A DNA stretch of 64,000 bases from Antedon mediterranea (Eukaryota; Animalia; Echinodermata), in NCBI RefSeq assembly GCF_964355755.1, contig NC_092673.1, positions 13,054,948-13,118,947 of the forward strand, written 5' to 3'. The translations under genes and the position numbers were made by a program. Below are positions 15,121 to 54,552 of this stretch, one piece after another. The stretch's first letter is position 1. Each line of letters starts with the position of its first letter. The notes below the pieces were generated by a model, which ran no database searches, had not been told where the DNA came from, and saw only the letters and a list, made by a program, of their open reading frames with translations.

Positions 15121-15179
15121 GCTCTACCTCTTAAGCCTGTTTTTCTGTCAGTTTTTACAATGATTTAGTCTGAAATGAA

Positions 15180-23399: not shown

Positions 23400-24500
23400 G
23401 AAAGTGGCAAGACCATTATCAGCAGATGTTAAACCAAATAAGATTCAGACTTTCAACTACAAATAGTCATGATAAAGACCAACAAACGGATGTTAAAATT
23501 CAACAAAAACTAATTGTTAAACAGAGAGTACGTATTTCTAGACTAAAACATGGCGTACGTAAACTAAAACAAACAGTAACAAGGCCAACAGCCATAAGTC
23601 GCATGCTCTCAGAAAAAAATGAACTTTCAAAACATAATGTACTTTAAAACTTTTCTGTACATCAAAACAGTTCAAAAAGTACAGAAAAGCGATAAAACGC
23701 ATAGTGATACCGGACCGACAGACAGACCGACCGACCGACATAGTGAACTATTGAGTCGCGTCCACGCAACTAAAAAAAATAAAGGTACAAATGTTGGAAT
23801 GAACAACATTGCTAGTATTATAGGTCAGGTAAAACGATACATTAAAGAACCAGCATTATCATTTTTCTCCTTACAGCTTAAGAATTCTGAACTTCTAACA
23901 AAAGCCAGGGGTAGAAGATGGTCATACAGTAACAAGGTGTTAGCCCTGTCACACCATCAAGGCCCCAGGGCGTATGAATTTTGTAGACAAATATTCATTA
24001 TGCCTACACCTTCATCTTTACATAAATGGTTGAAAAACATCGAAATTCAACCAGGGTTCAACACCGTTCCATCTTCCGACATTACGCTTTCCACAATTTG
24101 TTTCCATTTTTGTCTGTTTATCGCAGGATGGTTTGTTATTGTGTTAGTGTCTACATGTCTTATTTGATTCATCCAGTTATTTCTTGGTCTTCCTACGGGT
24201 CATTTTACTTTCCTGTTAGTTTACTTCATTGTTTGTTTGATTGGGGTATCATCCGGTAATCTAATTATGCGTTTAATAGCCGGATTTAAAAAGAGAAGAA
24301 GAAGCTGAAGCAACCGATGTCCACAAATTCTTCCCATGTGCAGTTCTTTAATAAATAAAAGTCATGGCTGAATAATGTGAAAGCAGACACCACGAGCTGG
24401 ATGGCTATTGGCGATATCTAAACATCAGAAAAGACATAAAGTTTATGCTCACAGCAAGATTCAATCAAGATATTGTTGAAAACCTGTTTTCACAAACTTA
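23400..24500 (+). pseudogene. P-element/THAP9-type transposase remnant
   Basis: KARGRRWS..KVLAL..GPRAYEFCRQIFIMPTPSSLHKWL..IQPGF and KFMLTARFNQDIVENLF (~24438). Confidence 0.75.
23577..23775 (+). mobile_element. Short Helentron/HINE-like insert within the P-type remnant
   Basis: (gacc/gaca)n microsatellite followed by 3' hairpin agtcgcgt-cc-acgc(a/g)act and an A-run; subterminal agtcgc(a/g)t copy near the 5' end. Confidence 0.45.
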
Positions 24501-26184
24501 TGTAAAAACAATCAATATTGATTGAACAAGTTGTACTGCACATCTAATCAGTTTTGTGAATAAATAAAGTTTATATATATAAATCGGCAAAGTTCAACCA
24601 GGTTCAACATTGCCGATTTGTCTGGGACGAATCGTAACTATTAGCCAATCACACACTGAATATCAGTCGACGTCACTCGCGGCGGGAATCTGCTCTCATT
24701 ATCGATCCACACAACATCGACGATTGCGATAATGATAGCAGCGACAACAAACAGTTTCGACGTGTCTCTTCTTAATTTTGTTGTCTCTACGACAAAGGTT
24801 TGAAGGGATTTAAAGATATGCGAACAAAAAGCAATGCATGGAGTGAGGTTGCGGCAAAACTAGGATGTACTGTTAAAAAATGCATCCAACAGAACTAAAG
24901 TGTCCGGACAACATTTTCTTTGTTAATTTTGTGTTTTTATAGTTTATTTTGTATTTACTGTTTGTATTGTTTAAGGGTCCCTAATGATCAGCTGATGCTG
25001 GATGGACCACCCTCATAAAATATTGTTGGAAAAAAAAAAAAAAAATAGGCACATCTAGCCTAGGCCCTACTAACTAGCTAGGCCTAGTTCGCTAGCGTTC
25101 TCTACCTGCCTGCTGGATTTTGCTTTTTTAGTAGGTAGGCCTAGCCTTATCTTAATGATAAAACCGTAATTTAAAGAAAAATAGTACATTGCCTGGAAGT
25201 CAACGAGTTTTGGTTAAATTTAACTGTTATAGCTAAATCATTTTTGTTAATGTAATTTTTTTTATTTTTCATCTTCCTTAATGCAAATGGTTACAAAAAA
25301 ATTACACTAACTACAACTATGGGCCACAGTTATTGCTTTTGAGGAGTGTACTTAAGTTAAAGAGAGTAATATATTTTTTTTAATAGTTCATACATGGTTA
25401 CATTTACTTTAAAAAGCTTACAAATTCACCCTAAACTAGCAATTTTCTAGTAGCTTTTTCATGATTTCTAGTTTTTCTAATTTTAAAACTAGTATAGTAA
25501 CAATGGTACTTGATTTGCCAATTCTGTAAATTCAATTTTTTTAGAAATTAAAAATGTGCTAGGTCTACTGTAGCTAGCAAAGTTGGGTTACTAATTTCCG
25601 TTCTTTTCCTTACCCTGTTTTATAAACAAAATAAATAGATATGGTTTTTAGGACTTTTGAAATAAAAGAGCTCTATAGGCCTAGTTAGAATAGAATAGAA
25701 GTAGGCATAGAGGCTGTAAAAAAGCTGTACTGTATTTCATCACAAAACTTTACCTAGGTCCTCTTAGACTATTTACAATCACAACTTAGGACTCTTAAGT
25801 CGTGATCGGTAGTGACATGCTTGCATATTATTGACATTATTATTTTTAAGGAAGAGAGCTATTTTATTAGATCTAACTAAGATGAACCAGTCTTCCTAGC
25901 ACATTAAAATCATGACAAATTAGTATTAATATAATCGGACTTTGAATAGGTTGTTTTAGTTTTAATAAAGTTATTAAATATTATCACTTCCATATAGAAA
26001 AAAAAACAAATGTTTTCACTAATAAAATGACAAAATAAATTTAAATGGTTACATTCAACCACAAAACCATTTTGATGATATCTAAATGCTTTAAATTACA
26101 TTTTTTCAGGTAAATAAATTTTTCTTTTTTAGATCCAATTTTTGGTCAAAGTGGATAACTAGGCCTTAGGCATATTCTAGGATG

Positions 26185-27391
26185 CAGACGTTCCAACCCT
26201 CCCGATTTATCCGGGAGTCTCCCGAATTTTAACATCACCTCCCGGTCTCCGAATTTTAAATATATCTCCCGATTTCACACATTTCTATAAAATTAAAATT
26301 CAGTATTATTGCATTAAATTAAAATCTATCTTCCCACGAAAGTTAATATTACAAATTAATTTAATCTCACACGTCGTACGTACCACCCCGTATGATACAA
26401 CGAACATGTATTGTAATGTATGTAAAGATTGTATAGCATAGTACAGCATACTGTAAGGCGACGTCCTTTGTGTTTACCGACAGTATGTGATTCTTACCTT
26501 TAGCGATAAAGCTACAGTATCGCTTTATCAGTAGAGTAGGTGCACGTGTACTGAAAATTTTTCCTGGTTACAAGTTTGACCTAATTCCCATGCCCAGGGA
26601 AGGCATCATCGTCAGTGTAGTAGTAGTAGTACTGTGCGACGTCCTTTGTGTTCACCGACAGTACGCGATGAATCTACAGAATCAGTAGTAGGCGCGCGTG
26701 TACTGAAATTGCTAGTTACAAGTTCTTTGACCCAATTCCAATGCCCAGGCATCGATCGTACCATCGTACAGTACTGTATGTATTATCACTGCGCATGTAC
26801 CGGAAAAGTACTTGTAGTACTGTATTTTGCGTACATACTTTCGTGAATTGCAATCAGTCGTGACATTTTCTGGTTTTACAGTATGTCGGAAAAACGTAGT
26901 AGCGTAGTTTGAGAGACTAAAGAAAGTTGTAAAAAGAAAAAATATAAAACTAGATTTTCTAATGAATGAAAAAATACGTTTCCGTTTGTTAGTGCGAGTA
27001 ATCAACACGCTACCGAGAGTGAATACAAGTTTTTTTGCACTATTTGTAACGTGAATTTGTCATGCTCACAGGGAGGAATCAACAATGTTGCTGTACACTC
27101 CAGTAAGTTGTTTGTTTTAATTTGTATTTTTGTTAATGAATTAATACAACTAAGTACAGATTTGATTTGTACTGTGAATGATTTTTTATTTAAGTGTATA
27201 CAACAATATAAAGTTAGTAAATATAGTTTGATTTATAATCACCAAACAAGTTCTTTTCTTTTTGTTTGTATTACTCTGATTTGCAAAGAGCTGTCTTAAG
27301 ATTCGTGTTGGTAGTACAGTATACTTTTATTCTTGAACGTTGGTGGCGGTATACCCTCCCGATTTTTAATTCATTTAGGTTGGAACGTCTG
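26185..27391 (+). mobile_element. Non-autonomous hAT-like element with 14-bp TIRs and 6-bp TSD
   Basis: cagacgttccaacc...ggttggaacgtctg flanked by aggatg on both sides; subterminal ctcccg repeats; internal zinc-finger exon F..EW..FPF..FFCTICNVNLSC..GG..DV..H. Confidence 0.8.
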
Positions 27392-27544
27392 AGGATGTGA
27401 CATTAAAAAAAATGGCATATTAAAAAAAAAACAAGGGGACAATACATCTTATTGCCTGGGTCTAATAATACTGTACCAAAGGAGATTACAATACCACTAC
27501 TATTAGGCCGCCTACTAATAATATTAGCCTCTAATACAAAACTA

Positions 27545-27935
27545 AAGCTTGTTTTCCATTAAATCGCTACATCATGTCGACATGTATCGCCGACAGTTGT
27601 CCCCGACTTAGGATAGTGATTTTATGGAAACGCTCGTTGTAGGGTGTCAATCTGGTACTAAACTATGCATGCATTGACACCAAAAGCACAAAAAAGGTAC
27701 GTACACACTTACGTAATTTGAAATGGCAGCAATTGCAAGACGTCAAATTTTAATTTTAAAAAATGCTTCTGCTTTTATGGAAGCAAAAAAAGCAAAACCA
27801 ATGTAAAATCAATAAAAAAAAGAAAACATCGATGTTGGGTTAGAAAAATCTACCAAGAACGTACGAAATATGGACAGTACTCGACACTATTTAGAATTCT
27901 AAAAAGTGATGACCGAGAGTACTTTTACAGGTAGC
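27545..27935 (+). pseudogene. Harbinger transposase N-terminal fragment
   Basis: HRCWVRKIYQERTKYGQYSTLF..DDREYFYR followed by a gt splice donor. Confidence 0.5.
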
Positions 27936-28029
27936 TAAGAAAGTTAGTTAGTAAGTTAGTTATCATATTATGGTTAAAATATTATATAGAGAATTCAAAA
28001 CCTAACTATTTTTAAATAAAATATCTTGA

Positions 28030-30655
28030 TATTAGATTCCAAAGCAGCATCTTAATAATGAGCAGTCCTTACAATTAGGAAGACCTGAAAATAAGGAAAT
28101 CGATGAGGCTGAGACCTGTACCCTTTTTTAGGACAATGATGAAGATCTTATAACAATCAATGACTTAAAACACTAAAAATGAAAGAGTTTTGTAAAATTG
28201 TGTTTATTCCTCAAAAGACATGAAAAGAAAATTATCATCATCAATATACGGTACTAAAATTATATTTTCAGAAGTTTAAGTAATTAAGTACAAACAAACT
28301 GCTCGTTTAATCTTTTCATAGAAATCAAAATCAATAAAGGGGATATTGAAGAGCAAAAATTTGAACTAATTGAGGCAGCTGCCAAATTAATCAATAGTAT
28401 TATTATCAATTAAGTATGTCAAAAACTACAAATAATAAGGAATACCCTTTGGATGATGAGTTAACTGTTGAAAATGGTTTGGCCTACCCAGAAGTTTGAG
28501 GATTTTTTGTAAGAAATTATTTGTTGGAAAGGAGACTGAATTAAAGGTAGCATCAATTGGCCAATCAATCATCCAAGCCGCAAGGCCTAGAGCAATTTAT
28601 AGCTCCATTTCAATTGGGCTTTGCCATACAGATGCACCACCATTTCGAATAAAAATACCTAATAAATTCTTTAAATTTACTTTTAAAATAAGTTTTGAAA
28701 TTTGAAGGAAATGCTGTCATAATTAGTATGGATAGGTTGTGTGACGTAGCGCATGATAGCTCAGTTACCTTTAATACTGACAATGTAGACCACAACATTC
28801 AGATTCAGATTCAGATAGAAAGAATACATTCCATGGAATGGGTATGATAGCATGTATCAAAAATGGAAAGGTATAAATATAACATCCGTTCCCAGAAAAA
28901 TTTTCTCAAGCAGTCAGATATCAAAAGCATCTCATGTGAAAATGGTAACCTACCATGAGTCAAGGAACATACTTAATTGTATGAAGCAGACATCCATATC
29001 TGAATGTGTTATATTTCATATTAAATTTTCCTAATGCTCAGATATTGGTACCTTGTTCGTTTGACCAAAATGCTCTGGGCTGTCGGTCACTGCCATCAAA
29101 ATCACTTGCCCATATACTGCCATGCATTCTCCACTAGAGTTTGAGGTGTACCAAAAAACTAATCATTAAATACATGTAACCTAAAAGTGCATGAACTTCC
29201 CGGGGAAACAGCTGCAGATTATACCAAACACATCTCACATATTGCAAATATTGTCTGCTAAATCAAGAATGCGGATGGAGAAGAAATTCGACAGAAAATA
29301 ATCAGATATTGCGAATACTATATAAGAGTCATTGTTAATCATGCCACCACAGCCAGCCTAAATGAAGTTTGGAATATGAGTTGAACTGCCATCTACATCC
29401 TCTGGATTCTATTTCAACTTCATGTACATCTTTAAAACAATTAAAGACAAACATAATGTAACAGGTAATAAGATAATTTTTATTTTCGTATTAAACAAGG
29501 CTAATTTTAACAGATTTTTATTTGGTTAACAAATATTAAAATGTTTTTCTTATTTTAAATTACAGGTGAGCGAATTTATGGATCAGACAGTTCTGCTGGT
29601 CAGTTGTCATTAGCCTTCACAACATTTAAAGATGGTTCAGACACCTAATATACAATGGATAAAAACACTGATCCAATTCCCATACAATACAAAACAGTGA
29701 AAGCCACATAGCAAGCCAATCTTGTGGGACAATCACAGAAAAAAATCTATGACAGTAAAGCCAACAACCAGACTACAATGGACCAATAAAGGTAAGTTAT
29801 GTTAAAACAAGAATGACATTTTGTTTTCACACCTGAACATTAAAGAATACTGTACACTTCAAGAACAGAATGTATATGTCGTAATTAATGATGAAGTTCG
29901 GTAGCTGAATGAAAATTGAAATCCGAACTTCCAATCACGGGTTAAATTTCATTCTTATCAATCTACCAAAGCTGAGGATACCAAATGGATTGGGAAAATG
30001 TTACAAGGAAAGAAACATCAGATACGCCTGCAATAGTTAAGCATATGTTTAAAGTATGTATGGATGTAACAAATATCCATCGCCAGCAGGTGCCAATATA
30101 AAGTGATGATCAACCATTTGCTATTGCAAAGCAGCTTTAATGGCAACATCTCCAGCAATTTGACGAGGACAAGATATTATAAATGATGTGAGGCCTGCAT
30201 ATTGAGCTGGCAATAAATGGTTGGGATATTGCTCTAAAATAGTTGTTGGTCAGAAACAACATCAGGAAGAGCCGAATCATTAACCTTTGCTAAGCATGTT
30301 AAGCATGCTCGGTATGCACACCAGTTTACACTTGTCTCCTTAAAGTTGAGATAACGGGAATAATGAGACTGGATATGGTTGACAAACAAAAAGGGAAAAT
30401 ATCCACAATTTTTTTTTCGGAGATTGAATGAAACTACAGATGGTCTACCTTGCTTTTGTTAGATTTTTAGTTTTATGTTAAAATCATTTTAGCTGTATGC
30501 TTTATGAATATTTTCCTTGAACCAAACTCATTACTAGCGATGGCTACCCATTCATCTGAGAGATATGGTGTAAGATATGGTATAATTATATGGGCAGAAT
30601 TCATGAATGGCAGATTCCAGCAAAACAGTTCTTAAGATGGCCTTAGATCAGGTTG
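28030..30655 (+). pseudogene. Academ-like transposase remnants interrupted by other fragments
   Basis: KVASIGQSIIQAARPR..QMHHHF, DNVDHNI..FHGMGMIA, DQP.FAIAKQL.WQ, GLHIELA, RWLPIHLRDM, KMALDQ. Confidence 0.6.
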
Positions 30656-32033
30656 GAAACTATCTATTTTGTGAAAAATAAAGTTCCATCTAGGGTATGT
30701 GGTTCAGAGTTCACACGGTGTCAGATTTCACACGCCCACCTCATAAATATTCATTTTTAAACAAACCCATCAACCAATCAAAACACTTTGCTCACTGAAC
30801 TGTAAAATTACTTCTCTGCTTCGATCGTTGATCCAAGCAGTGTACAGCAAAACTTTGAATCCAAAAAACCATATTTTGCAAGTCAAGGTAGGTACAAAAC
30901 TTGAATTTTTCTTAATTACGCAATTAGCTAACGAGTATGGGCCACGTGCAAAAGCCCAAAAAATCTAAATTTAAAGAGATATACTTGTAATTTATGATTT
31001 ATATGGTCTTTAATAACTGGCCAAACAAAAATAATTTGTTTGTCTGATGCTTACGTCATCAACCGATTGTAGGGGAGGGTGAGCGAATACCAGGCCACTA
31101 AATCCCAGTTGGGTTCAAAATTCACCCGGTTGGTGGCGCTATATACTTTTTTTATAATGTACTGGTTTTGGGTGATTAGATGCTTCTTAGCCATCTTAAT
31201 TAGGCGTTTTAACCAAATATAACTCAATAAAACCGTTTTTTATTCAATAGCTATAGTCCTAAATATTTAAAAAATTAAATAAATATAAAAATTAAATATT
31301 ATTATTATTATTTTTTTTTTATTACAAATTTATATCAAGAATTAAATCAAGAACATTAAAAAATTAGTACGTGAGGTATATTTCGGAAGCACGTGCGTGT
31401 GGGCCTGCTAACTAATGTTATTTAATTGGCATACTTAATATACATTATTGTGATAAACATTATTCAAATAATCATTAAATTTTCTTTTTTTTTAAAGGTT
31501 ATCTACAGTCATCTTTAATTTCAACAGTATTTATATTTAAATATTTACTTATAACAGTATGTGTACCGTTTATTTTATACAGAGTGTAAATTATATTTTT
31601 TAATATTTAACAATAAATATATAACATTTACGAAGAAAACATTGTTTATTACTTATCATTTTTGTTTGTTGTTATTAACAATACTGCATATCATTTGTAT
31701 TGGAATCCTTCGAACGAGTGTAGCATCAGATATTTTCCCGTGTTAGGATTGGATCGTATAAAATCAAAGATCCATTCGGACATCAGAGAAACAACATCAA
31801 TGAACATACTGATGCTGAAACATCTAAATCACTCATGTATACAATACAGATAAGTTGCTTCTTTAACCCTAAGTGTTAATTGTTTAATGCTGTTGTTTGG
31901 CATATTTATTTTTAACTGTTTTTATGTTGCGTTTTATTGTTCGATGTCATCAAGTTTATTTGTGTTTAGTACTGTATTGTGAAAAAAAAAGAGTTTAAAA
32001 AAATAAACCGTTCATCGTTATTAAACTTTAGAT

Positions 32034-42197: not shown

Positions 42198-43304
42198 TGT
42201 AATATAATGTTGGGTTGTTGAGGTACTAATGAAAGACTCTAACTCGCTTGACTGTCGTAACACATATATTATTTATTCAGTATAATACTTCAGTACAATA
42301 TACAACTATAAGTATAGATAAGGAACGGACAATCAATGATGCTGTCGGTGAGGTGTGAAGTTTGTTAGTCTGCTTCTGGAGAAGTGGCTGTAAGGTGTGT
42401 CTCTGTGAGGTGGCTGTAAGGTGTGTCTGGGCCCTTCTGAAACTTGGGAGTATATTGGCTCAGTTCATTTGCATAATGTCATTACATCATCTGTGAGGGT
42501 AACGATTGGTCCTAAGTTGATCCAGGGGTGTTTAAGTGGGAGTGATTAACGGTATAATAAGGTATTTCTGTGATGGATGACACTTAAATAGTGTCGATCA
42601 CTCCTGGTTTAACGATGGGAAAGTCACAAAATTAAGCTAAGTGTTTTCTTTAGGGATTCTATTATAAACTAAATGGTCATTAAAACATCTGGACAAACTC
42701 TCCTTTGGACTTTCTGGGTCAAGTTTGTGAACCTATTTGAATTCCGATACAAAGGTCAATTTCTTAAATATAAAAGTATATCTTTATATCACATCCCTCT
42801 ATTTCCCTTTTTTTTTTTTCTAATCTATTTAAAATATAAAAATGGTTATAATAGTGGCATGCAAAATTAAAGTTATATAAAAGAAAAAAAACATTATTAT
42901 ACATATAAGCAAAAATTGAGTTAGCCAAAACCATTGACTCTGAAGTGTAACCTTATCACTTTCACTCTCTCTCTTCTCTCTCTTAAAAAAAATGAAATTA
43001 AAAATGAATTTGGTATAAAATTCGCGTAAATCAAACATAAATCAGTTAAAAAATAAAATTACAAAACTTAAAAATAGTATGTTACATTGAACATACATCA
43101 AATCGTGCGACACTCATCGCGTTCTAATGGTCTTCAAACATAAATCATCAAATCAAAACATAAAAATTGAGAAACTGTGGCTGATTAGCCTAAAATCAAA
43201 TATCAAACTTAATCACTTAAAACTTTAAAGGAAACAAATGTGTGTGTCCCGTTGACACAAACTTATCCACAATATATCGTTATCGTCACAACTTTATCGA
43301 TTTA
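42198..43304 (+). repeat. Left inverted arm: segment T (42198-43023) joined directly to segment B (43024-43304)
   Basis: T is the reverse complement of 51823-52649; B is the reverse complement of 50185-50457. Confidence 0.93.
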
Positions 43305-43702
43305 AGCATTTATATTTACAGGTAATTACGATTTCAATCGGTCGGCAAATTCGACTTTTGTACTCAATGTCAAAAAAAATTACAATTAAAAGTACTAAGA
43401 AAATCTCCTGTTATTGTATATCAATTAATTAATGCTTGAGATTAACGACTCAAAGGTTAAACAAAATATTTGTTACAAAATGATTGTCGTTCTTTTCAAT
43501 ATCTCAATATATCGATCATCAAAATTCAAAATTAATCATTATCAAAAAACTCGTTACAAAATCAATTCTTAAACATAAATTCAATTCTCTTTTAACTGAA
43601 ATCACATCATTACTAAACAAATCTCATCAAATACGTAGACTATGCTATCATTAATTTAGCAAATGTCGTAATTTAAAAATAATCTTGCAAAAAAAATTTA
43701 AA

Positions 43703-45617
43703 TCAGTAATTCGTTGCATTATACAAGCGTTTTATGAATCGTTTTGGCGATCCACTTATCGGTATCTGTTTATCATTAATGATCTCTTTAATCAATTTAT
43801 CTGTATCGTTATATCTGTCAATATTCCACCAAAATTTGCGATCATTAGATTCGTGTTTTGTTTTATCAGTGTTGCGTTTGGCTGAAGTCGGTTTAGAATA
43901 CGAAACTAAAACTTGGAAATGTCCTGCTTTAAATCTACCTCGGTTTAATGTCATAATTGAATCATTAGGTGCTGTCATAATTAGATTAGTTTGTTCCTTG
44001 ATTTGTTCTTCTTTCATTTGGAATGGGGCTGCTAATCCCATGTTATTCTCTACACAGTCAATGTAAGGTTGCAAGTTAAGGGGTTCTACTTTAGTTGGAT
44101 GTGTAAGGGTATCTGATTGCAATTGGGTGGGTGTCCTATCATGTTCGTCTACAAATTCAACATTGGTTTCGTCATTTACTACATTAATGGTGTTTTGGAT
44201 TTTCTCGTTATTATCATCAGTGGGTTCATTCAACAATTGTTTAAGTTTTTGGAGATGTGTAAAATTTTTGCGTTCTTTGGGTGTTCTCATAAAACAGGGT
44301 TTCAGTCTGTTATAATTGAATACGTCGCGAAGTATTTCTCCTTTAATCGTCGCTAGGATGTAGTGTGTTCTGTCTAGTACTTCATGAATCACTAATGGTC
44401 CGACCCATTCTGCGGCGATTTTCTTTGAATTTGCCGTTAGTGATGATGATGTTGGCTTGTATAAATATACGAGTTGTCCTACTGAGCAAATTGGACATTT
44501 TTCTAAGCGTTGGGAAATTTTTGAGTTTTGGACGTTTTGTTGTGTTCGCTGTAATTGTAGCATTGTCTGTGAAATGTTTTGAAATTTCTTCTTGAGATGT
44601 TCAAAGTATTCTTCATAGGAATGAGACAATCCTGAAATAGGGTTAAATGCTAATGAGGTCAAACTTGGAGGTTGGCGGCCAAAAACTAATTCGTAAGGGG
44701 AGTGGTTTCCTAGATGTGGGGATGAAAACGAGTTATAAGCATAACATGTTGTTGATACAAATCTAACCCAATCTGTTCCGAATTGGTTAAGGTTGACCTT
44801 TAACAGGTCCGATACGGTGCGGATATGACGTTCAACTTGTAAACTACCGTGATTGTGGACGCTGATGATTTTCCTATCAATATTAAGGGTGTTACATAAT
44901 AGTGTTAATAATTTTCCTGTAAGGGAGGTTGCTGCATCTGAAATAAGACGAGATGGTGGGGGTCCAAAAATACTGATGACCTTTTGAATTAGTGCTTCAC
45001 AAATTGTTTCGGCATCAATGGATTTCAAAGGTACACAAATCAAAAATCTAGTTATCTCATCACATACTACCATAATATGTTTAAAACCTGAAGGTGATGT
45101 TGGCATACTCTTAAAATCTAGACTGAGTGTATGAAAGGGACGGTAAGTTGCTGGTACTCGATCGTGTAAAGGACGTAATTTATCGGTTTTGGGACGAAAT
45201 TGTTGACATCTAAGACACGCTTGGGTATAATTGTTGACTTTCTCGAACATAAGGCATGTAAAATAATTTCCTAATAGTAAGGTAAGTACGCATCGTACCT
45301 TGGTGGCTACTTAACAAATTGTCGTGATACTGAGAAATAATAGTCTCTGCTAAGTTTTCAGGAACAGCTAATTGCAATACAAATTCTCCACCTTTATCTT
45401 GGAAAAATAAACGGAATAGTAAACCGTTGCACAATATGTACTGCTCTGACTTATTCTGAACTGCACGAGCTGCTTTCTTATCAGCTGGAAGGATATCATG
45501 AACTAAATAATCGTAAACTGGCTTAAAAAATGGTGAAGTTTCTTGTTCAACACGTAATTGTTTAACATCTACTGGGAGGTTATAATCTCTAATTATCTTT
45601 CTTTGAATAACATCCAT
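43703..45617 (-). pseudogene. pol: Gypsy-type DDE integrase (HHCC zinc finger, catalytic core, GPY/F-like motif, long C-terminal tail); frameshift near 45250
   Basis: YHDNLLSSHQG..ACLRCQ; LSLDF..VVCDEITRF..LISDAA..QVERHIRT; SPYELVFGR; WVGPLVI. Confidence 0.92.
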
Positions 45618-45625
45618 TAATCTAT

Positions 45626-46246
45626 CTAAGTCTTGTTTTTTGGGATGTGTGCTGACTTAAATTCAGTTATGTTGGGTACTAGTGGTTTGGGCGATGTATA
45701 CAATTCAACTGGTACGTTTCGATGTGTAGTGTCTTTGCTTTGCTTATTTTTGTCTACTAGTCGTTCCTCTGGAGGTTGTCGAATGTTTACATTACGTATT
45801 GGGGGTGGCGTTACGATAGGTGGCGTTATGATAGGCGGTGATCGATGTGCGTTTGTTTGTTGTCTCGTGATTATCTGTGGTGTAGCGGTAGGTTGAGGTG
45901 TAGGTCGCGTGTTTGTTGTCACTGGATTTTGATTAATGACGGGCGTTTGTACTGGTTTGGGTTTATGTAGGTCAGGTATATTTATTCCCATTTTCTTGGC
46001 GTATGACCTTGTTACTGGTCTGCTAGTAGATGTGTTTGTAATCGGGTTAAGAGATTCAGTCTCTGTAATATTAAATGCAATGGGTACAACTTGATCAATT
46101 TCGGAATCGTCGTCACGAGGGGCTCGGGAGAGAAAATCTGCTAAAACTAATTCAGTTCCTTTCTTATAACCAATTTGGAAAATGTATCCGGACAATCGTA
46201 ATATTAGTTTCTGTAGACTGATCTTTTGAATTCCAAATTTGTACAA
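45626..46246 (-). pseudogene. pol: RNase H C-terminus plus Pro/Thr-rich linker of pol (frameshifted on both sides)
   Basis: LQKLILRLSGYIFQIGYKKG..LADFLSR, RPVTRS, then a P/T-rich tract. Confidence 0.85.
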
Positions 46247-48398
46247 TTGCTGAGTGGTCTACGAATGCATCAAATTCGCAACCCTTTAGTAAGTGTCGAA
46301 ATGCTGAAACGTTAATGTAAAGTCCAAATAACTCTAGTTCTGTGACGCTATATCGTTGACAGGCTTGTGGTAAGATTTTGGAATAATAACCTATTATGTG
46401 TTCTTTACCGTTTACTGTTTGTGTTAAATATGAACCTGTTGCGGTTCTTGAAGTGTCGCTATATAGCGTAAATCTACCTTCTTTTCTAGGCATTTGAAGA
46501 GTTGGTGGTTTAACCATTAATTGTTTAATTTCGTCAAATGCTTTCTGGTGTTCAGTAGACCAACAAAATTTTCGGCGTTTGCTTGCGAGTGTGTGTAACG
46601 GACGTAAAATTGATTGTATTTGAGGGAAAAAATGGGATACATAATTTACTGCACCAATAAGTCGTTTAGTTTCTATATGGGTTCGTGGGACTGGCAAATT
46701 TCGGATAGCTGCACACCTGTCGCCTAATGGTGTGATACATGCGTGTCCTGAAGAATTAATCAGGATGGTGTGTCCCATATATTGCACTTTATTCTTGAAT
46801 AACTTACATTTCTTTGGACAAATTCTAAAACCATTTAATTGTAGGGCTTGTAAAACGGAAACGAGGTGCTGCTTATGAGCAAATTTGTCTTGGCTAAATA
46901 AAATAATATCATCATGATGGGCGATACAGAATTCTCTAGAATTTGGGATTTCATTTAAAATTTCGTCAATCTTTGCTCGAAATATACCTGGTGAAACGTT
47001 TAATCCTTGTGCTAATCTCTTATAATAATAATGTTTTCCACCATGATATGAAGCTATACCTGTATATTGTTGGGCATGTTCGGTTAATGGTACACAGTGG
47101 AACGCTGATTTCAAATCAATTACGCTAAGAATCTGTGCATTAGCGTTACCTATTGTTTTCAAAGTTTCGGCTAATAATGGGAATGGGTGATTAATACGTT
47201 TTATCCTGGAATTTAGATAGCGAAAGTCTGTGACAACTCTTTTATCTTTTGAATTTTTCTTTGAAACAAGAAGGACAGGGGAAGTATACGATTGGTGTCC
47301 TACTGCTAAGATTCCTAGTTTGACTAATTTGTTCAATTCGGCCTCAATAACATGTTTGTCTTTGTCTGTCGCGAAGTATGGTCGAATAAAAAATGGTTCA
47401 TTGTTAGAGAGGTGTATGTCAGCTTTGAAGTTTGGGCAGCTAGATAGTTCACCATAAAGTGAAAATGCGTTTCTGTTTTGTTGTAAGGTTTTATACAAAT
47501 CTTCTTTTTCTCTATGTGTTAAAACGCTGTCTGTTAAATCAACTTGTTTTCTAATTATTTCTTCCTCGGTTAAAGATAGCAATGGGTCTGTACGTTCTAA
47601 ATGTGGGTACTTGTTTGCGTTGTCATTGGTCAACTTTATTCTATCAATTGGTAGGTCGTTAGTAACTGTTACAAGGTTGGTTAAGTGAAGGCTCGCGATA
47701 GGTTGATGTGTATTTAGAGATACGTTTCTGTTTGTGTTGTTAGTGATATCAATGTTGGTTTCTCCTCTATGTAATTTTACTAACATGTCTGATGGACAAA
47801 GTTTTGAAATATGGGTGGTTGCATGTAGAACAACATCAGAATTGCGTACGAAGGCGGGAACCCTTCCTTTTAATTTAACTGTTTTAGTATCACCGTGTTT
47901 AAGAAAAATCTTGTGTACTGGACAAAAGCTAAAAATCTTTGGTCTAATGCGAAATGTGTTTTCCTTAAAATTTAAAGTACCGTCGAGTTCAGACAATGTT
48001 TCGGTTCCAAGTATCAGGTCGATACCTGTCAAATTTTTAACGATTAATGCTGAAATTTTAAATTTGTGTCCTTGGATAAATAATTCGAATTGCACTAAGT
48101 GGTTGGCATATAAGAAGTCACCGTTACCTAATCGAAGTTTGGTTGTGTTCACTTTAACTGGCTTTAAACGCGATAAATAAAGTGAGGAATTAACGTACGA
48201 TTGTGAGATTATAGTTCTAGTTGAACCACTGTCAAATAAAGTTAAAACATTTCTACCATCTGGTAAATTTCCTTTAACGTAATTTCTGTCGTTAAGTAAC
48301 AAATCAATATTATCTGAGTTCCCTAAGTATTTTGCCTTAAAATTGTCGTATTTAGTATGGGGGGCCAGATTATAGGCGGCATCTAGTCCCCTTTTTAA
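46164..48398 (-). CDS. pol: Pol: aspartic protease, reverse transcriptase, RNase H
   Basis: LFDSGS (protease); RVVTDFRYLN, IDLKSAFH, LAQGLNVSP, AHHDDII (RT); LYSDTS, YSVTELE, FVDHSA (RNase H); frame open from the gag stop region. Confidence 0.95.
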   Translation of the reverse strand, partial: LKRGLDAAYNLAPHTKYDNFKAKYLGNSDNIDLLLNDRNYVKGNLPDGRNVLTLFDSGSTRTIISQSYVNSSLYLSRLKPVKVNTTKLRLGNGDFLYANHLVQFELFIQGHKFKISALIVKNLTGIDLILGTETLSELDGTLNFKENTFRIRPKIFSFCPVHKIFLKHGDTKTVKLKGRVPAFVRNSDVVLHATTHISKLCPSDMLVKLHRGETNIDITNNTNRNVSLNTHQPIASLHLTNLVTVTNDLPIDRIKLTNDNANKYPHLERTDPLLSLTEEEIIRKQVDLTDSVLTHREKEDLYKTLQQNRNAFSLYGELSSCPNFKADIHLSNNEPFFIRPYFATDKDKHVIEAELNKLVKLGILAVGHQSYTSPVLLVSKKNSKDKRVVTDFRYLNSRIKRINHPFPLLAETLKTIGNANAQILSVIDLKSAFHCVPLTEHAQQYTGIASYHGGKHYYYKRLAQGLNVSPGIFRAKIDEILNEIPNSREFCIAHHDDIILFSQDKFAHKQHLVSVLQALQLNGFRICPKKCKLFKNKVQYMGHTILINSSGHACITPLGDRCAAIRNLPVPRTHIETKRLIGAVNYVSHFFPQIQSILRPLHTLASKRRKFCWSTEHQKAFDEIKQLMVKPPTLQMPRKEGRFTLYSDTSRTATGSYLTQTVNGKEHIIGYYSKILPQACQRYSVTELELFGLYINVSAFRHLLKGCEFDAFVDHSAIVQIWNSKDQSTETNITIVRIHFPNWL

Positions 48399-48404
48399 AA
48401 ATCC
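48360..48404 (-). promoter_or_regulatory. Putative -1 ribosomal frameshift signal between gag and pol
   Basis: Minus strand G GAT TTT TAA, then GGGGACTAGAT-loop-ATCTGGCCCCC hairpin 6 nt downstream; pol is in the -1 frame and open from this point. Confidence 0.75.
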
Positions 48405-49360
48405 TGCTGGTGGCTAGGGTAGTAATTGTTTGACTGTTGGTATGGGTATGGCGGGGGATAGTTTCCGTAAGAGCGGTTTTGTTGTCGGCAGTGCCTTGCT
48501 ATGTGGCCTGGTTTCCCGCAGTAATAACAGGTTGGGGGAGGTTGTCTATATCTTGGGGTCGGTGGGGTCTGGAATCGGGGTTTGTATGGGCTTGGGCTTC
48601 GGTTTCGTCTTGGGATATAATTTCGGGTGGGGGAACGTGAGCGTCGAGTATCATCATTAAGGGATCGTTTTGTTGTGGCCATGTCTAACTTGAGAGAATT
48701 TATCTCATGTTGGAGCGATTCGAGACTATTAGGCCTATCTGTTTCCTTATTGATATTGAATGAAACTTCCCGTGTGGCATCATCTACGGAAAGGTCAAGG
48801 TAATTTTGTGTGCTATTTACAATATTTTCAATAGTGGCATCGATTGGGGTGGACATGGCTACAGCTGCTCTACATTTTGGTGGAAGGGTCGAAATAAATT
48901 TATTCTTTATCTGCTGGTCAGCGTATCCAATTCTGTCTGCGGCTTGTTTGATTTTGGTTAAGTGCTTTTCGGCGTTGTCGCCAGTGGTGTATGTAATTGA
49001 ATCGTATTCTCTTATGTGCGCATAGATTGATTTGTTTTTACTAAACCTGTTGATGAATTGGGTTTTTAAGGATTCTAGTGAATCGAACTGCTTTCCCTCA
49101 ATCCAGAGTCTAGCTTGGCCCTGAAGGCTACGTTTAAAAATACTTATTACATTAATTAATTGGGCATTGTTTACAGGGTTTTCTAAAGTGTGGGCCTCAA
49201 GGTAGTCGGTAAACGATAAGTAGTGTGCACTACATTGGTCGTGATCGGTTATGGAACCGTCATATCTTTTGGGAAGGAAATCGGTTTGTCTTAGGTGGGG
49301 CACGGGGTGAGGATTGACGGGCTCATTTAAAATTACTTCGTTATCAACAACGTCGACCAT
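48395..49360 (-). CDS. gag: Gag with CCHC zinc knuckle
   Basis: 321 aa, uninterrupted; FKRSLQGQARLW..LKTQFINRF capsid-like motif; RS/P-rich linker; CYYCGKPGHIARHC. Confidence 0.93.
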   Translation of the reverse strand: MVDVVDNEVILNEPVNPHPVPHLRQTDFLPKRYDGSITDHDQCSAHYLSFTDYLEAHTLENPVNNAQLINVISIFKRSLQGQARLWIEGKQFDSLESLKTQFINRFSKNKSIYAHIREYDSITYTTGDNAEKHLTKIKQAADRIGYADQQIKNKFISTLPPKCRAAVAMSTPIDATIENIVNSTQNYLDLSVDDATREVSFNINKETDRPNSLESLQHEINSLKLDMATTKRSLNDDTRRSRSPTRNYIPRRNRSPSPYKPRFQTPPTPRYRQPPPTCYYCGKPGHIARHCRQQNRSYGNYPPPYPYQQSNNYYPSHQQDF

Positions 49361-49692
49361 ACTTTATAATATTAATTATTAATCAAATATCAAAAACAAT
49401 TTAGTGTATATGTAAACTCTCACTTTTTCAATAAAGGTTACAAATCAAGATTCGAAATGGTTTCGACTTACCCCAAATGCTTCGGATCCAATTAAAATGA
49501 ATTAAAAGAATGCAAAAGTGTTCAAAAATGTTTAAATGTTCAAACAACGAATTAAAAAAAATGCGAAAGGTGTTCATCAATGTTCAAAAAAGTAAATGTT
49601 AAAAAAAACGATCGAAAAAAAAACGGCGTGAAGTTGAAAGTCTCTAAACGAAACAGTTCTTGTCCGCTTGCTTCTGTTTTGATTCTTCTTGG

Positions 49693-49899
49693 GTCTTCCT
49701 CGATTATCTTCTTTGTCTTTATCCAATGGTTATAATTTCATAAAATTTCTGCTTGTCTCGATTTCATTCAAATATATAATTTCAGCTTGTCTTTTGTGTC
49801 TTCCTCGATTATCTTCTTTGTCTTCATCCAATGGTAATAATTTGATAAAATTTCTGCTTGTCTCGATCTCATTCAAATATAATTTCAGCTTGTCTTTTG
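49693..49899. repeat. Tandem duplication (~105 bp x2) in the gag leader
   Basis: gtcttcctcgattatcttctttgtct... at 49693 and 49798. Confidence 0.9.
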
Positions 49900-50011
49900 A
49901 GTCAAAGTAAATTTCTCTCCTTTCAAACAAATGTGGTTATTTTTGTCTTTGTCTTCGTCTTCGTGTCTTGTTAAGTGTTTATTTCTTGTTTTCTCACTCC
50001 GTTCCTTATGA

Positions 50012-50029
50012 AATTTGGGTCTTCCACCA
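50012..50029 (-). promoter_or_regulatory. Candidate primer-binding site
   Basis: TGGTGGAAGACCC.. immediately follows ..TATATTACA on the gag-sense strand; TGG is complementary to tRNA 3' CCA. Confidence 0.7.
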
Positions 50030-50184
50030 TGTAATATAATGTTTGGTTGTTGAGGTACTAATGAAAGACTCTAACTCGCTTGACTGTCGTAACACATATA
50101 TTATTTATTCAGTATAATACTTCAGTACAATATACAACTATAAGTATAGATAAGGAACGGACGGTCAATGATTGATGCTGTCAG
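50030..50184 (+). repeat. Internal direct copy (segment A, R/U5-like) of the left terminus 42198-~42348
   Basis: tgtaatataatgtt.ggttgttgaggtactaatgaaagactctaactcgc...taaggaacggac; contains AATAAA on the gag-sense strand. Confidence 0.95.
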
Positions 50185-50457
50185 TAAATCGATAAAGTTG
50201 TGACGATAATGATATATTGTGGATAAGTTTGTGTCAACGGGACACACACATTTGTTTCTTTAAAGTTTTAAGTGATTAAGTTTGATATTTTGATTTTAGG
50301 CTAATCAGCCACAGTTTTCTTGAGTTTTATGTTTTGATTTGATGATTTATATTTGAAGGCCATTAGAACGCGATAAGTTGTCGCGCTATTTGATATATAT
50401 TCATTGTACATATTCTCTAAGTTCTTTAAATTTGACCAATTGACGTTTGATTAACGC
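50185..50457 (-). repeat. Segment B of the right arm (inverted copy of 43024-43304)
   Basis: taaatcgataaagttgtgacgataa.. pairs with ..ttatcgtcacaactttatcgattta; more diverged distally (gtttgattaacgc vs gcgtaaatcaaac). Confidence 0.9.
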
Positions 50458-50722
50458 TCGAGGGAGGAGTAGAGCCAATTACGAGCTATATATATAAACA
50501 ACCGGATGAGCAGACTATAAATAAGTCGCACGAGCGTATCAAATATACAGTATTTACTGTCGAATTATAAGTTAATTTACTTTTGTGAGATTGTTATAAT
50601 AGTTGAACTTGAAATTTTATTGTTTGAGTTTTATATCGTTTATTTAGTTTAATATTGTTTATTTTAAATACATTTTAATTTTATTTATCTTAATTTTAGT
50701 CAATTCCAAATTTCCCCCTAAA

Positions 50723-51598
50723 ATGGAATCCGAAAAGCTTGACGTTACACAGTTATGCTTAAAACACAAAATTCAAATGACGCCCCTGTCCACAGAATGT
50801 GCCCTTATAAAGAAGATAATCCTTTACCAAAGCGAACAAAACGTAATTCTCCATATTACCAAAATGATGCCATTTACTTTAGATTCCTTGAAAAGAGTTT
50901 TATTATTCCTTTGCGACATCCGTCCAGCAGACCAACTGACAAACCTCAAATTAAATACCCTTTTACACATTGGCAGTTATTTATGTTGTTTCGACAAAAT
51001 GTCCTCCCCCATTATAGACTACATTTGGAAGCATAAGAGTGAACCAGCCCTACTTGACTTTTCCACAATCGACCTTTCCATTAATCTAGACGGCATCGCC
51101 ACTTGTATACCAAACACACATGAATTTCACAGAAAACATATTTATTCTATGACCCTCCTGCTCTTAGCAATTACAAAAGACATCAAAGCCCCACAATGCA
51201 CAACATTTTTTTCAAGAGTCCGACAACAAACAGGCATCATACCCCAAGACGAATTAAAACCTAGCGAACACTCACCATTTGGATATGTTGTAACTAAATA
51301 TAAGAAAAAACTATATTCGCACATTCGTAACATGCAGTACCTGGAAAATAAATACCAAGATACCCCCTGCCAAATTTGTCAATGTAACCCCGAAATTAAA
51401 AACTTTCATACTGATTGTACAATCAACAAATGCTGCGGAACATTGTTTCACAAAAATTGCCAACAAATAAACAAGAAATACCAATGCTTGAATTGCGGTA
51501 TGGTATATTTGAATGAGATGCCTTACACTGCTACCTACATATTGGACGACGGCACACTGTGGACTACATCCCATTATTATCGATTATTATATGATTGA
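50723..51598 (+). CDS. Accessory ORF antisense to gag-pol; C-terminal RING/PHD-like Cys/His cluster, possible BTB-like N-terminus
   Basis: Uninterrupted 291 aa; CQIC..KCCGTLFHKNC..CLNC; upstream TATAAA (50517) and cagt (~50548). Confidence 0.75.
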   Translation: MESEKLDVTQLCLKHKIQMTPLSTECALIKKIILYQSEQNVILHITKMMPFTLDSLKRVLLFLCDIRPADQLTNLKLNTLLHIGSYLCCFDKMSSPIIDYIWKHKSEPALLDFSTIDLSINLDGIATCIPNTHEFHRKHIYSMTLLLLAITKDIKAPQCTTFFSRVRQQTGIIPQDELKPSEHSPFGYVVTKYKKKLYSHIRNMQYLENKYQDTPCQICQCNPEIKNFHTDCTINKCCGTLFHKNCQQINKKYQCLNCGMVYLNEMPYTATYILDDGTLWTTSHYYRLLYD

Positions 51599-51822
51599 TT
51601 TCAATTTATCCTTTATAAATTTTTTTTCTATTTCAAATAATTAACGAGAGTCGACTTCTTGACCGATGTTTTTTAGGGAAACCCAACCGTTGTGATGTTT
51701 ATATTTCGGTAATCCGAGTGTAGCATGCCTCCAAAGCAACGGACCCACAATTATGTCGATCTTGAAGAACACTTTTGTTTTTTTTATATACATTTTTTGT
51801 TTCAAATTTTATATAAATTCTG

Positions 51823-52649
51823 GAATTTTTATACCAAATTCATTTTTAATTTCATTTTTTTTAAGAGAGAGAAGAGAGAGAGTGAAAGTGATAAGGTTAC
51901 ACTTCAGAGTCAATGGTTTTGGCTAACTCAATTTTTGCATATATGTATAATGTTTTTTTTTTCTTTTATATAACTTTAATTTTGCATGCCACTATTATAA
52001 CCATTTTTATATGTTAAATAGATTAAAAAAAAAAAAAAAGGGAAATAGAGGGATGTGATATAAAGATATACATTTATATTTAAGAAATTGACCTTTGTAT
52101 CGGAATTCAAATAGGTTCACAAACTTGACCCAGAAAGTCCAAAGGAGAGTTTGTCCAGATGTTTTAATGACCATTTAGTTTATAATAGAATCCCTAAAGA
52201 AAACACTTAGCTTAATTTTGTGACTTTCCCATCGTTAAACCAGGAGTGATCGACACTATTTAAGTACAGATTTGACAGTGTCATCCATCACAGAAATACC
52301 TTATTATACCGTTAATCACTCCCACTTAAACACCCCTGGATCAACTTAGGACCAATCGTTACCCTCACAGATGATGTAATGACATTATGCAAATGAACTG
52401 AGCCAATATACTCCCAAGTTTCAGAAGGGCCCAGACACACCTTACAGCCACCTCACGGAGCACACACCTCACAGCAGACCTACACACTTCACACCTCACT
52501 GACAGCATCATCGAATGTCCGTTCCTTATGTATACTTATAGTTGTATATTGTACTGAAGTATTATACTGAATAAATAATATATGTGTTACGACAGTCAAG
52601 CGAGTCAGAGTCCTTCATTAGTACCTCAACAACCCAACATTATATTACA
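51823..52649 (-). repeat. Right terminal inverted repeat (segment T)
   Basis: Reverse complement of 42198-43023 with a few substitutions, an ~11-bp indel near 52267 and a diverged patch at ~52455-52520. Confidence 0.95.
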
Positions 52650-52670: not shown

Positions 52671-54552
52671 TAGTCAGGTGGCTTAACAACAAAAAATGAG
52701 GAAATCGTTACACGGTGGACAAAAGCGCCAAATTTGGCATGGAGCTTCGTTGGGACCTACCAATTGATTTTTGCCTAGGAGCCACTCTGGTCGCAATTTA
52801 TTTTTCAAGATGGCGGCCAAAATCCAAAATGGCCGCCAATATATTGGAAAATCACATTTAATTTGTTACAGAAGTCACATATAGGCAAATGAACTATCAA
52901 AACATAAGTATTCATGGTCATTAAAACATATTTTAGACATGTTGCATAAAATGGGTCATTCGTTGTTAAGATGGTGGCTAAAATCCAACATGGCTGCCAG
53001 TAGCCTAAACTGGAATATCATTCTCTGGTTGCAGAAATCGCATATATCAAACGAAGTAGGAAAACACATGGAGTAGGCCTAATCATGGTCATTGAAACAT
53101 ATTTTAGACATGGTACATAATATAGGTCACTCGTTGCAAAGATGGTGGGAAAAATCCAAAATGGCTGCCAGTAAACTAGGAAATCACATACAGTATCTGT
53201 GGACGGCAGAAGTAATATGTAAATGAAGTAGCTGTAGTAAATGGTAGAGGTGGTATGTAAATTACAAGTAACTGTAAAAAAATCTATAAAAAAAAGTTAT
53301 AACCAGTTCAGTTTCTGAAACCACATAAAATGTGGTATTTTTGGGAAAATAAAGATTGAGGGCGCTGTTCACATAAGTAAAAGTACACTTTTCTACCTGT
53401 AACTAACTAAGTTTTTGTCAGAACATTTGTTAAATGGTCTTATTTGATAGATAATTACATTTTCTTTATATTAAAGAAAACAAATTTTACATTAAATATC
53501 CATAGTTCAGATAAATTTACGTTAAGTGCCTAAAATCAGCAAATATAACACATTTTAATACATAACAAATACTATTGGATGTTAGCAAATTACAAATTTA
53601 GTTATCATAAATAGGATTCTTTTACATTTTCATAGAAACTGTTTTATTATAAAACATATAAATATATATTTATCTAACAATTTCTCATAAAAAAACTTTT
53701 ACGACCACTAGTTTTCGAGATATAGAAATGTGTACTTCCAGTACAGGTCAAAGGTCAATAACAAGAATCTGGGTCATTTTCTTGGAAAAGTTTGTATTAG
53801 ACTGAATAGAAACATCCATCTTCTGATTAATTTGAGACCTATTTAAAGTTTGTCCAACTGTTAGGTACCACGTTATATGACATAGGTCAAAGGTCAAAAA
53901 TACCAAAAATCATACTTCCGGCCATTTTTTGACAAATTTTTCCATTAGGACGAATATTAATATGCATCTTCCAAATAATTTGACACTAAAATTATTTAAT
54001 TTAATGTAAGCGTTTAGGAGATATGGTTATTTTGTTTTCAATTGGATTAAAATATTCAAATTGAGGTCAAAGGTCAAAGAAAAACATTAGAAATTTGATA
54101 ACATGGGTTTTTATAACTAGCATGGTTAAAAAATTCATAAAATGCAATCCTTGGACTTTCCTTCTGATTTGCAGACTAAAATACATTAGGAATGGACTAT
54201 TTGTGACTTTGTATACGATTATATATGTATTTCAATTTCAATGGCTACCACTTTAAATTTTGGGCGCCATCTTGGAACTCATTTTATATAATATTTCCTG
54301 AATTGGTTTTACTGACTTCAGAAATTCTTGATTCAGTACATTATTTGTCTATTTGTAACTTTTACAGCCAGAGATATATGATATACCAATTTACTGGCAG
54401 CCATTTTGGATTTTGGCCGCCATCTTGGAAAATCGGAAGCTGATCGGGTGGCTCCTAGGCAAAAATCAATTAGTACGTCTAAAAGAAGCCTCATGCAAAA
54501 TTTGGTGCTTTTGTCCAACTTGTAACGTTTTAGTCGCTAAGCCACCTGACTA
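52671..54552. mobile_element. Non-autonomous DNA transposon, probably Academ (TAG termini, 3-bp TSD)
   Basis: tagtcaggtggctta...taagccacctgacta, imperfect TIR of at least 170 bp; agt duplicated at 52668-52670 and 54553-54555; empty site cc-agt-aggcc at ~22311. Confidence 0.85.

Follow-up and report, generated by a model that had tools for sequence, protein, structure and literature searches.

Structure of the insertion and its target site

The window, i.e., the whole 64,000-nt stretch of Antedon mediterranea DNA that was analyzed, carries a Ty3/Gypsy-type insertion of 10.5 kb at 42198-52649. The surrounding region is a near-identical, repeat-rich host duplication, which differs beside the site by 21 substitutions in 1,998 nt (1.05%). 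The 4-bp sequence CTAA is present on each flank, and the empty paralogous site at 22295-22298 of the window has a single CTAA. Reading inward from either end gives TGTAATATAATG. The arms are inverted, T-B on the left and T-X-B on the right, with a U5-type end on each side. The claim of the earlier note that both ends are of the U5 type was borne out, and the target-site duplication together with the empty site shows that they were integrated together.

The layout given in the earlier note was also recovered. On the left, T (42198-43023) is followed by B without a gap; on the right, T (51823-52649), X and B are followed by A and the primer-binding site (PBS), and T and B are inverted with respect to the left arm. 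A directly copies the left end, and TGGTGGAAGACCC adjoins it on the minus strand (Table 1). From 42198 to 50185 the parts follow the order of an ordinary element without X (R-U5, PBS, gag, pol, UTR, polypurine tract (PPT), LTR), in which only the 5' U3 is missing. On the opposite strand, 50185-52649 is the 3' end of an X-bearing element (UTR, X, UTR, PPT, LTR). There is a single joint between the two parts, and the 4-bp duplication is clean. No direct LTR pair flanks the genes, as the direct repeat is only 156 nt long and the full LTRs are inverted. The copy is a derivative of a Ty3/Gypsy LTR retrotransposon and not a canonical member.

Table 1. Features of the insertion (positions in the window)
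Feature	Position	Strand	Basis
Left target-site duplication CTAA	42194..42197	.	single CTAA at empty paralogous site
3' LTR, X-less partner, 596 nt, TGTGATATAAAG...CATTATATTACA	42198..42793	-	sequence features
PPT directly before LTR	42794..42821	-	19/20 upstream bases purine
Distal 3' UTR, inner part of T	42822..43023	-	arm comparison
B left, 3' UTR of X-less type	43024..43304	-	also joins pol end in organism C (run X9)
pol, PR-RT-RH-IN, RT active site HHDD	43703..48413	-	domain and ORF analysis
gag with CCHC zinc knuckle, open	48395..49363	-	domain and ORF analysis
PBS TGGTGGAAGACCC	50017..50029	-	directly after A
A, last 156 nt of 5' LTR without U3, likely R-U5	50030..50185	-	direct copy of left end
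A-to-B joint, sole non-native joint, 1-nt overlap	50185..50185	.	junction alignment
B right, 3' UTR of X-bearing type	50185..50457	+	X contig of run X1, same type
Cassette X, 1,365 nt, single occurrence in window	50458..51822	+	multi-copy in runs X1 and X3 (contig depth)
X ORF, 291 aa, open	50723..51598	+	ORF list, homology searches
Distal 3' UTR, X-bearing partner	51823..52024	+	arm comparison
PPT directly before LTR	52025..52053	+	PPT scan
3' LTR, X-bearing partner, 596 nt	52054..52649	+	arm comparison, PPT scan
Right target-site duplication CTAA	52650..52653	.	single CTAA at empty paralogous site

Gag-pol, internal LTR remnant and joint

Gag and a pol in the order PR-RT-RH-IN are both present, as is usual for Ty3/Gypsy elements. 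Breaks near 46200, 45640 and 45250 distribute pol over four reading frames. Gag and pol overlap at TTTTTAAAAA, which resembles a slippery site and may be used for a programmed frameshift. The integrase has an rve core, and no recombinase family was found among the domain matches. The closest solved RT structure is that of yeast Ty3 (E 2e-49), and relatives occur in Holothuria (66%) and Patella (58%). The RT motif of the element is HHDD instead of YxDD, which brings an RT clade with this motif to light; an HxDD RT motif was not found in the literature, which was covered mainly within its open-access part. Since pol is broken and no U3 precedes the PBS, this copy is probably a dead end.

The PBS stands directly behind the U5 end, as in Ty3/Gypsy elements. 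Compared to the left LTR, A has one substitution over the first 132 nt; its innermost 20 nt are unlike both LTRs, a difference that an older joint would also produce. The joint coincides with a CTCACT of the right LTR that is initiator-like, as are 11 other motifs in its 596 nt, a post hoc and weak argument for the chimera proposed below. In the related locus L007 the CA is followed by TGGTGGA. The primer tRNA may be that for alanine, which is a guess, and TGGTGGAAGACCC had no match in the PBS table in the supplements of PMC13524379.

Terminal arms

In both arms T consists of 3' UTR, a conventional PPT and a 596-nt LTR with TG...CA ends and, judged by these features, is not a novel arm type. 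The PPT and the LTR start adjoining it in each T had been overlooked in the earlier note. The PPT directly before the 3' LTR and the TG...CA termini with a short target-site duplication are those of Ty3/Gypsy elements. Outside the element such a purine tract precedes 9 of 7,121 TG sites. The start of the LTR matches the U5 end in inverted orientation at 10 of 12 terminal positions in both arms, and none of the seven equally good TG matches outside the element has a PPT. A conventional PPT, a TG...CA LTR and this terminal match in both arms speak against the PPT-independent replication that had been proposed for the element. A second purine run of 20 nt in the distal 3' UTR (42965-42984) was rejected as PPT, as the subsequent TG poorly matches the U5 end whereas 42794-42821 fits. 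The left LTR contains ATGCAAAT, AATAAA and two CCAAT. B is further 3' UTR, which behaves as an ordinary single-copy sequence in relatives.

The earlier note had described the arms as more diverged than the LTRs of a young insertion, which holds for the outer part of B and one LTR patch but not for the rest of T and inner B. Between the arms, T shows 16 substitutions in 826 nt, and seven of these lie within a single 83-nt patch of the LTR (8%; Fisher p=0.0004 for the patch versus the remainder of T). Outside this patch T differs at 9 of 743 positions (1.2%), not distinguishable from the host duplication (p=0.68). In B, 20 differences fall in the outer 150 nt (13%) versus one in the inner 131 nt (0.8%; p=4e-5). 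Old divergence is thus confined to outer B and the LTR patch, and elsewhere the arms are at the level of the host duplication. Because the arms are alike within that level except for X, outer B and one LTR patch, they point to two non-identical templates, and the two-template origin that had been suggested earlier fits this concentration of the differences.

Cassette X

CCAAT- and TATA-like motifs lie in X at about 50474-50500. The encoded protein has a helical N-terminal part (low-confidence model) and a Cys/His-rich C-terminus; the single-sequence model reached a pLDDT of 45 and was left out of the fold search. By all searches the protein is an orphan: no homologues were found among 258 word-sharing candidates, in 1.84 billion representatives, in the Atlas or in 30 related loci, and Pfam gave only matches below the cut-off (VWC2L, E 0.026; Rubicon homology, E 0.17). 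X was rejected as an intron, its ends not being GT..AG on either strand.

X has sense orientation and lies between UTR and PPT, where an ORF3 is usually found; this makes the earlier proposal of a sense ORF3 after pol probable. According to contig depth X is multi-copy in runs X1 and X3, at 0.28 and 0.29 of the gag-pol depth, respectively, which suggests that about 0.3 of the family copies carry it as an optional sense ORF3. The element thus brings an optional orphan ORF3 to light. Sense ORF3s are known in LTR retrotransposons (excerpts of PMC5408684). In L001, the closest of the relatives retrieved (65% RT identity), pol is followed by a GDSL-like ORF in sense orientation.

Family copies in other sequence data

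Contig depth in the middle of B was compared with the median gag-pol depth in three public runs (X1, X3 and X9), the B figures being lower bounds as short contigs can be missing. Mid-B and gag-pol depths were at least 371 and 592 in run X1, at least 119 and 190 in run X3, and at least 14.7 and 15.1 in run X9 (the first figure of each pair being the bound). The predictions were 425-592, 135-190 and 12-15 for B once per gag-pol and 1017-1184, 325-380 and 28-30 for B twice. B therefore occurs about once per gag-pol in these runs, contig depth not being equal to copy number. Run X7 (organism B) was left out of this test; its mid-B depth of 5,814 versus 2,887-4,638 in the deepest gag-pol contigs corresponds cleanly to neither once nor twice.

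In run X9 one unbroken contig of 1,982 nt leads from pol to about 190 nt inside B. The X contig of run X1 continues into B of the right type, with two differences in 411 nt. Among the contigs examined, none joins X via B to the pol end and none is a complete canonical copy of this family. An inverted repeat longer than 24 nt was found in 0 of 19 related contigs of at least 5 kb, probably only one of which is long enough to span an element. No relative was found among viral contigs. Related contigs show PPT-LTR-PBS runs, possibly collapsed assemblies, and the depth ratios favor direct LTRs in the family; LTR depth is 3-10 times that of gag-pol, as expected from solo LTRs. The family would thus be canonical. 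Pairs from a loose PPT/LTR/PBS scan of related loci were mostly due to chance and were excluded from the counts, and a 180-nt palindrome that ends the short contig L028 was disregarded because it is probably an artefact of assembly.

Origin of the element

On balance, the insertion is likely a one-off chimera of two 3' ends placed back to back around one gag-pol, made in reverse transcription and inserted by integrase. Its partners were likely an X-less and an X-bearing member of an otherwise ordinary Ty3/Gypsy family. Two co-packaged RNAs of this family would have entered one reverse transcription, with one tRNA-primed minus strand being extended across the PBS to near the 5' end of the RNA and the other stalling in the 3' UTR. 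A template jump over the 1-nt overlap would then join both minus strands end to end, each would act as the complementary strand of the other, and integrase would insert the product via its two U5 ends. In vitro, end-clamping by RT required two complementary bases including C or G (excerpt of PMC3035444). As the overlap here is only one A/T pair, a joint made by the host fits as well.

Such a joint would give the same one-off chimera by host repair: either two separate cDNAs were inserted by integrase at one site through their U5 ends, or the host end-joined two broken cDNAs, with ligation of the inner ends. We regard this as possible but rather unlikely. An overlap of 1 nt, as found here, is typical of end-joining. 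In addition, truncated ends joined to more viral DNA in either orientation are seen in aberrant HIV proviruses, but the aberrant end of these is usually accompanied by large duplications or deletions of host DNA (excerpts of PMC5041404), whereas here both ends are precise and flanked by a 4-bp duplication. The joint also lies where the RNA 5' end may be, a weak argument against repair.

A self-propagating marine-invertebrate Ty3/Gypsy subfamily with inverted arms is improbable. Its RNA would start in B upstream of A, and a second minus strand would anneal via B and replace the PPT-primed plus strand, shuffling the optional X between the arms in each round. It would account for two-template arms with U5-U5 ends, for the 99% identity of the inverted inner B, for the variant at the inner end of internal A and for the greater depth of B over gag-pol in run X7. 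However, both arms keep an intact PPT and the inverted match of the U3 end, the depth of B in three runs corresponds to about one B per gag-pol, the related contigs of at least 5 kb, of which probably only one could span an element, lack inverted repeats over 24 nt, and a canonical element would be restored if such an RNA were primed at its PPT in the ordinary way. The annealing through B suggested in the earlier note is likewise unsupported, B being an ordinary single-copy 3' UTR in relatives and the A-B junction with its 1-nt overlap the only new joint.

Still less probable is a rearrangement after two elements had inserted at the same site, or a misassembly, although a near-identical duplication and many repeats are nearby. 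The flanks are the two sides of one empty site, each borders on a U5 end, and there is one 4-bp duplication, so that two insertions at the same four bases would be needed, and a fold-back read artefact would make the arms identical. Very unlikely is an origin from one template, in which a single minus strand folded back on itself to copy its arm and X was gained or lost later. Inverted arms would then need no second molecule, but they should be identical, whereas divergence is 13% in outer B and 8% in the LTR patch, far above the background of 1%, and the B type linked to X is present in many other copies. We give hardly any credence to flip-flop isomers, also raised earlier, in which the two B repeats recombine so that gag-pol is inverted and X switches between the ORF3 and a divergent position. 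The 131-nt inverted repeat of inner B would allow a rare passive inversion, but no ORF has a recombinase-like match, no second isomer was seen, neither isomer has direct LTRs, and X as ORF3 needs no inversion since B is single in relatives. Autointegration was excluded as the joint lies away from the LTR end (excerpt of PMC7197481). Altogether, the layout of the earlier note stands, its view of arm divergence stands in part and its interpretation mostly does not.

If the insertion is a one-off chimera, it shows that a germline cDNA with U5 at either end can be inserted by a Ty3/Gypsy integrase and that the target duplication is then normal; the locus also keeps a trace of two distinct family RNAs meeting in one reaction. 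A joint present in multiple copies would amount to a replication route that is new for LTR elements.

Comparison with known systems

The element resembles Ty3/Gypsy elements (Metaviridae) in its CCHC gag, PR-RT-RH-IN order, PBS at U5, PPT at a TG...CA LTR and 4-bp target-site duplication. It differs from them by the 5' LTR cut to 156 nt, the second 3' end placed upside down, the U5 at both termini and the HHDD of the RT. The ORF3 families of bdelloid rotifers described in excerpts of PMC5408684 have an extra sense ORF after pol, as does L001 with its GDSL-like ORF; X, in contrast, is a Cys/His-rich orphan, is apparently optional within one family and faces away from gag-pol.

With DIRS-1 the element shares non-identical inverted terminal repeats and a terminal sequence repeated internally, but DIRS elements, as excerpted from PMC7192593, rely on a tyrosine recombinase, and their ICR contains the two outer ends. 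The present element has a DDE-type integrase, a PBS, a PPT and a target-site duplication, and its internal repeat comprises only the U5 end. An assignment to DIRS or other tyrosine-recombinase retrotransposons was thus rejected, given the rve integrase core, the lack of a recombinase and an internal repeat that is one U5 end followed by the PBS and no ICR. Ginger-type DNA transposons have terminal inverted repeats and a gypsy-like integrase but no RT or PBS; they were rejected, as RT, RH, gag, PBS and PPT are present and the inverted arms are LTR plus UTR. A literature search, mainly of open-access papers and with Repbase outside its scope, gave only DIRS or unrelated elements for gypsy elements with inverted LTRs.

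Like the aberrant retroviral integrants in excerpts of PMC5041404, the element is probably a rare, single malformed copy in which inverted viral DNA is joined. Unlike these, both of its ends are clean integrase products and its halves derive from distinguishable subfamilies.

Structure of the insertion

The insertion (42198-52649; 10,452 nt) contains the whole feature under study. Both of its ends read inward as TGTAATATAATG, in line with the proposal of the earlier note that both DNA ends are of the U5 type. CTAA is present on both flanks and once at an empty paralogous site (22295-22298) in the same window; therefore, a single event of the integrase type brought both ends into the chromosome. 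The empty site is supplied by a host tandem duplication (15668-31752 versus 35931-64000; 96-98% identical overall and ~99% beside the insertion site), which could alternatively be two haplotypes assembled in tandem. The coordinates also bear out the arm map drawn earlier, with T, B, X, A and the PBS at the expected positions.

Features of the two arms and the internal joint (window positions)
Feature	Position	Location	Description
T	42198-43023 and 51823-52649	both arms	3' UTR, PPT and LTR
B	43024-43304 and 50185-50457	both arms	UTR, 400-680 nt past the stop codon of pol
X	50458-51822	right arm	cassette, sense, between UTR and PPT
A	50030-50185		direct copy of the left U5 end, then PBS
Foreign joint	50185		one base shared by both sides; only such joint

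The start of the LTR was searched among the TG sites of the element which resemble the reverse complement of the U5 end. TGTGATATAAAG, matching it at 10 of 12 positions, was found at 42793 (minus strand) and 52054 (plus strand), each directly preceded by a purine tract (19/20 purines). In the control outside the element such a tract occurred at 9 of 7,121 TG sites and at none of the 7 equally good U5-end matches. These sites and the adjoining tracts define a 596-nt TG...CA LTR, and the assignments of T and B follow from it. Octamer, CCAAT and AATAAA motifs are found within this LTR. Apart from the missing U3 of the 5' LTR, the left 8 kb corresponds to a normal element; the right 2.5 kb belongs to a different, X-bearing copy and represents its 3' end.

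The minus-strand core consists of gag with a CCHC knuckle and pol in PR-RT-RH-IN order, the latter broken over four frames. Ty3 RT is the nearest solved RT structure, and the named relatives are from sea cucumber and limpet, which points to a marine invertebrate as the probable host. At the RT active site (~46910) HHDD replaces YxDD, as in 17 of the 19 closest homologues (17/96 overall; the motif pattern matched nothing in 66), and a literature search found no paper on an HxDD RT motif. The leader between PBS and gag holds a ~106-nt tandem duplication (49684-49903; 92% identical).

The ORF in X (50723-51598; 291 aa) is open; CCAAT- and TATA-like motifs precede it, and the AATAAA of the LTR follows. 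Sequence and profile searches returned no homologues and the structure model was unreliable. The Cys/His spacing in its Cys/His-rich C-terminus, which we take to be RING/PHD-like, leads us to guess at a zinc-binding accessory protein.

Further repeats were observed in the window. A 1.88-kb non-coding element (52671-54552) with ~290-nt diverged terminal inverted repeats (TAG...CTA), presumably Academ-like at its ends, and an AGT duplication lies 17 nt right of the TSD and is missing at the empty site. A 1.3-kb stretch (14194-15487) has inverted ends of ~280 nt (82% identical), and 8403-9260 is an array of a 62-bp unit with core copies 98-99% identical.

Family survey in public sequencing runs

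Part of the stretch is contained in 16 public runs, five of them with at least half its words; contigs of four of the 16 were examined, from organism A (X1, X3), organism B (X7) and organism C (X9). The X ORF is near-identical and multi-copy in organism A and diverged in the other two. In the two runs of organism A the depth of the listed X contigs is 0.28 and 0.29 times the median for the gag-pol contigs listed, well over that of the rare-variant contigs (depth 4-16). With contig depth as a rough guide to copy number, X is therefore multi-copy in organism A but absent from some family copies. In a 424-nt contig (depth 159) of organism A, X is continuous with B of the right-hand type.

Relative to gag-pol, the depth of mid-B is at least 0.63 (X1), 0.63 (X3) and 0.97 (X9), and that of mid-B plus X at least 0.91, 0.92 and 1.15, respectively, whereas two B per element would give about 2. 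In X9 a single unbroken contig runs from pol ~190 nt into B. Mid-B in X7 (5,814 versus 2,887-4,638 for its deepest gag-pol contigs) was ambiguous and left out of the ratios; there, the 3' part (43310-44540) and the LTR (51823-52490) are several times deeper than gag, which suggests many internally deleted or solo copies in organism B.

Divergence of the arms

T differs between the arms by 16 substitutions, 7 of them within positions 133-215; the remaining 9 in 743 nt do not differ from the rate in the adjacent host duplication (21 substitutions in 1,998 nt; p=0.68). In B the outer 150 nt carry 20 substitutions and the inner 131 one. The first 132 nt of the internal A show 1 difference to the left A and 4 to the right. 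The arms were claimed to be more diverged than young LTRs, which holds for the patch in T and for outer B but not elsewhere. As the divergence is patchy and the remainder is at the level of the host duplication, the insertion is young, with the old differences carried in by two different templates, in agreement with the idea that the arms derive from two different RNAs.

Origin of the inverted arms

The structure is real and quite probably represents an isolated accident in an otherwise ordinary family, a one-off chimera of two templates. That it arose by an RT jump is slightly favored. The left part, read on the plus strand, corresponds to an X-less RNA copied in full into minus-strand cDNA and on past the PBS for 156 nt; the right part, read on the minus strand, corresponds to minus-strand cDNA of an X-bearing RNA, halted in the UTR. 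Joining both 3' ends, presumably by a template jump inside a particle containing both RNAs, gives exactly the observed molecule, with tRNA-primed U5 ends at both termini. Because the joint coincides with an initiator-like motif in the right LTR, the RNA cap may be where the first strand ended, but the LTR has 12 such motifs, and the left LTR is without the one at the joint.

According to PMC3035444, two complementary bases with a C or G allow RTs, that of Tf1 among them, to join 3' ends. The single A/T pair at the joint falls short of this unless a base was added, so the same chimera with its ends joined by host repair (compare PMC5041404) stays a real, if rather unlikely, rival of the RT jump. 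A heritable replication route, in which a second minus strand anneals through B as the earlier note suggested, is improbable: it requires a parent already carrying B before A, none of which was seen in the material examined, and the RNA of such a parent, primed at the PPT in the ordinary way, would yield a canonical element again. Flip-flop recombination between the B repeats found no backing either, with no recombinase-like match for any ORF and no need of inversion for X after pol, and autointegration was rejected since it would set the joint at an LTR end (PMC7197481).

Comparison with known systems

The 30 related loci have RT identities of 36-65%. Among the 19 of at least 5 kb, of which probably L009 alone could span an element, no inverted repeat >24 nt was found. 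In L022, L004 and L008 a PPT-like run, a TG...CA run and a PBS-like run follow one another, as direct LTRs would give, although collapsed assembly may also account for this. The nearest locus, L001, has a GDSL-like sense ORF 3' of pol (5217-5810; Lipase_GDSL_2, E 1.3e-5, under the curated cut-off), and sense ORF3s after pol are on record in LTR retrotransposons (PMC5408684).

The literature search, of incomplete coverage, turned up no description of an integrase-encoding element with such an arrangement. DIRS-1 (PMC7192593) is similar in outline only. In its workings the element is like Ty3/Gypsy (Metaviridae-type LTR elements), and it shares four of five tested features with them, the difference being that direct LTRs are missing; therefore, it was filed as a malformed derivative of a Ty3/Gypsy element and not as a canonical member.
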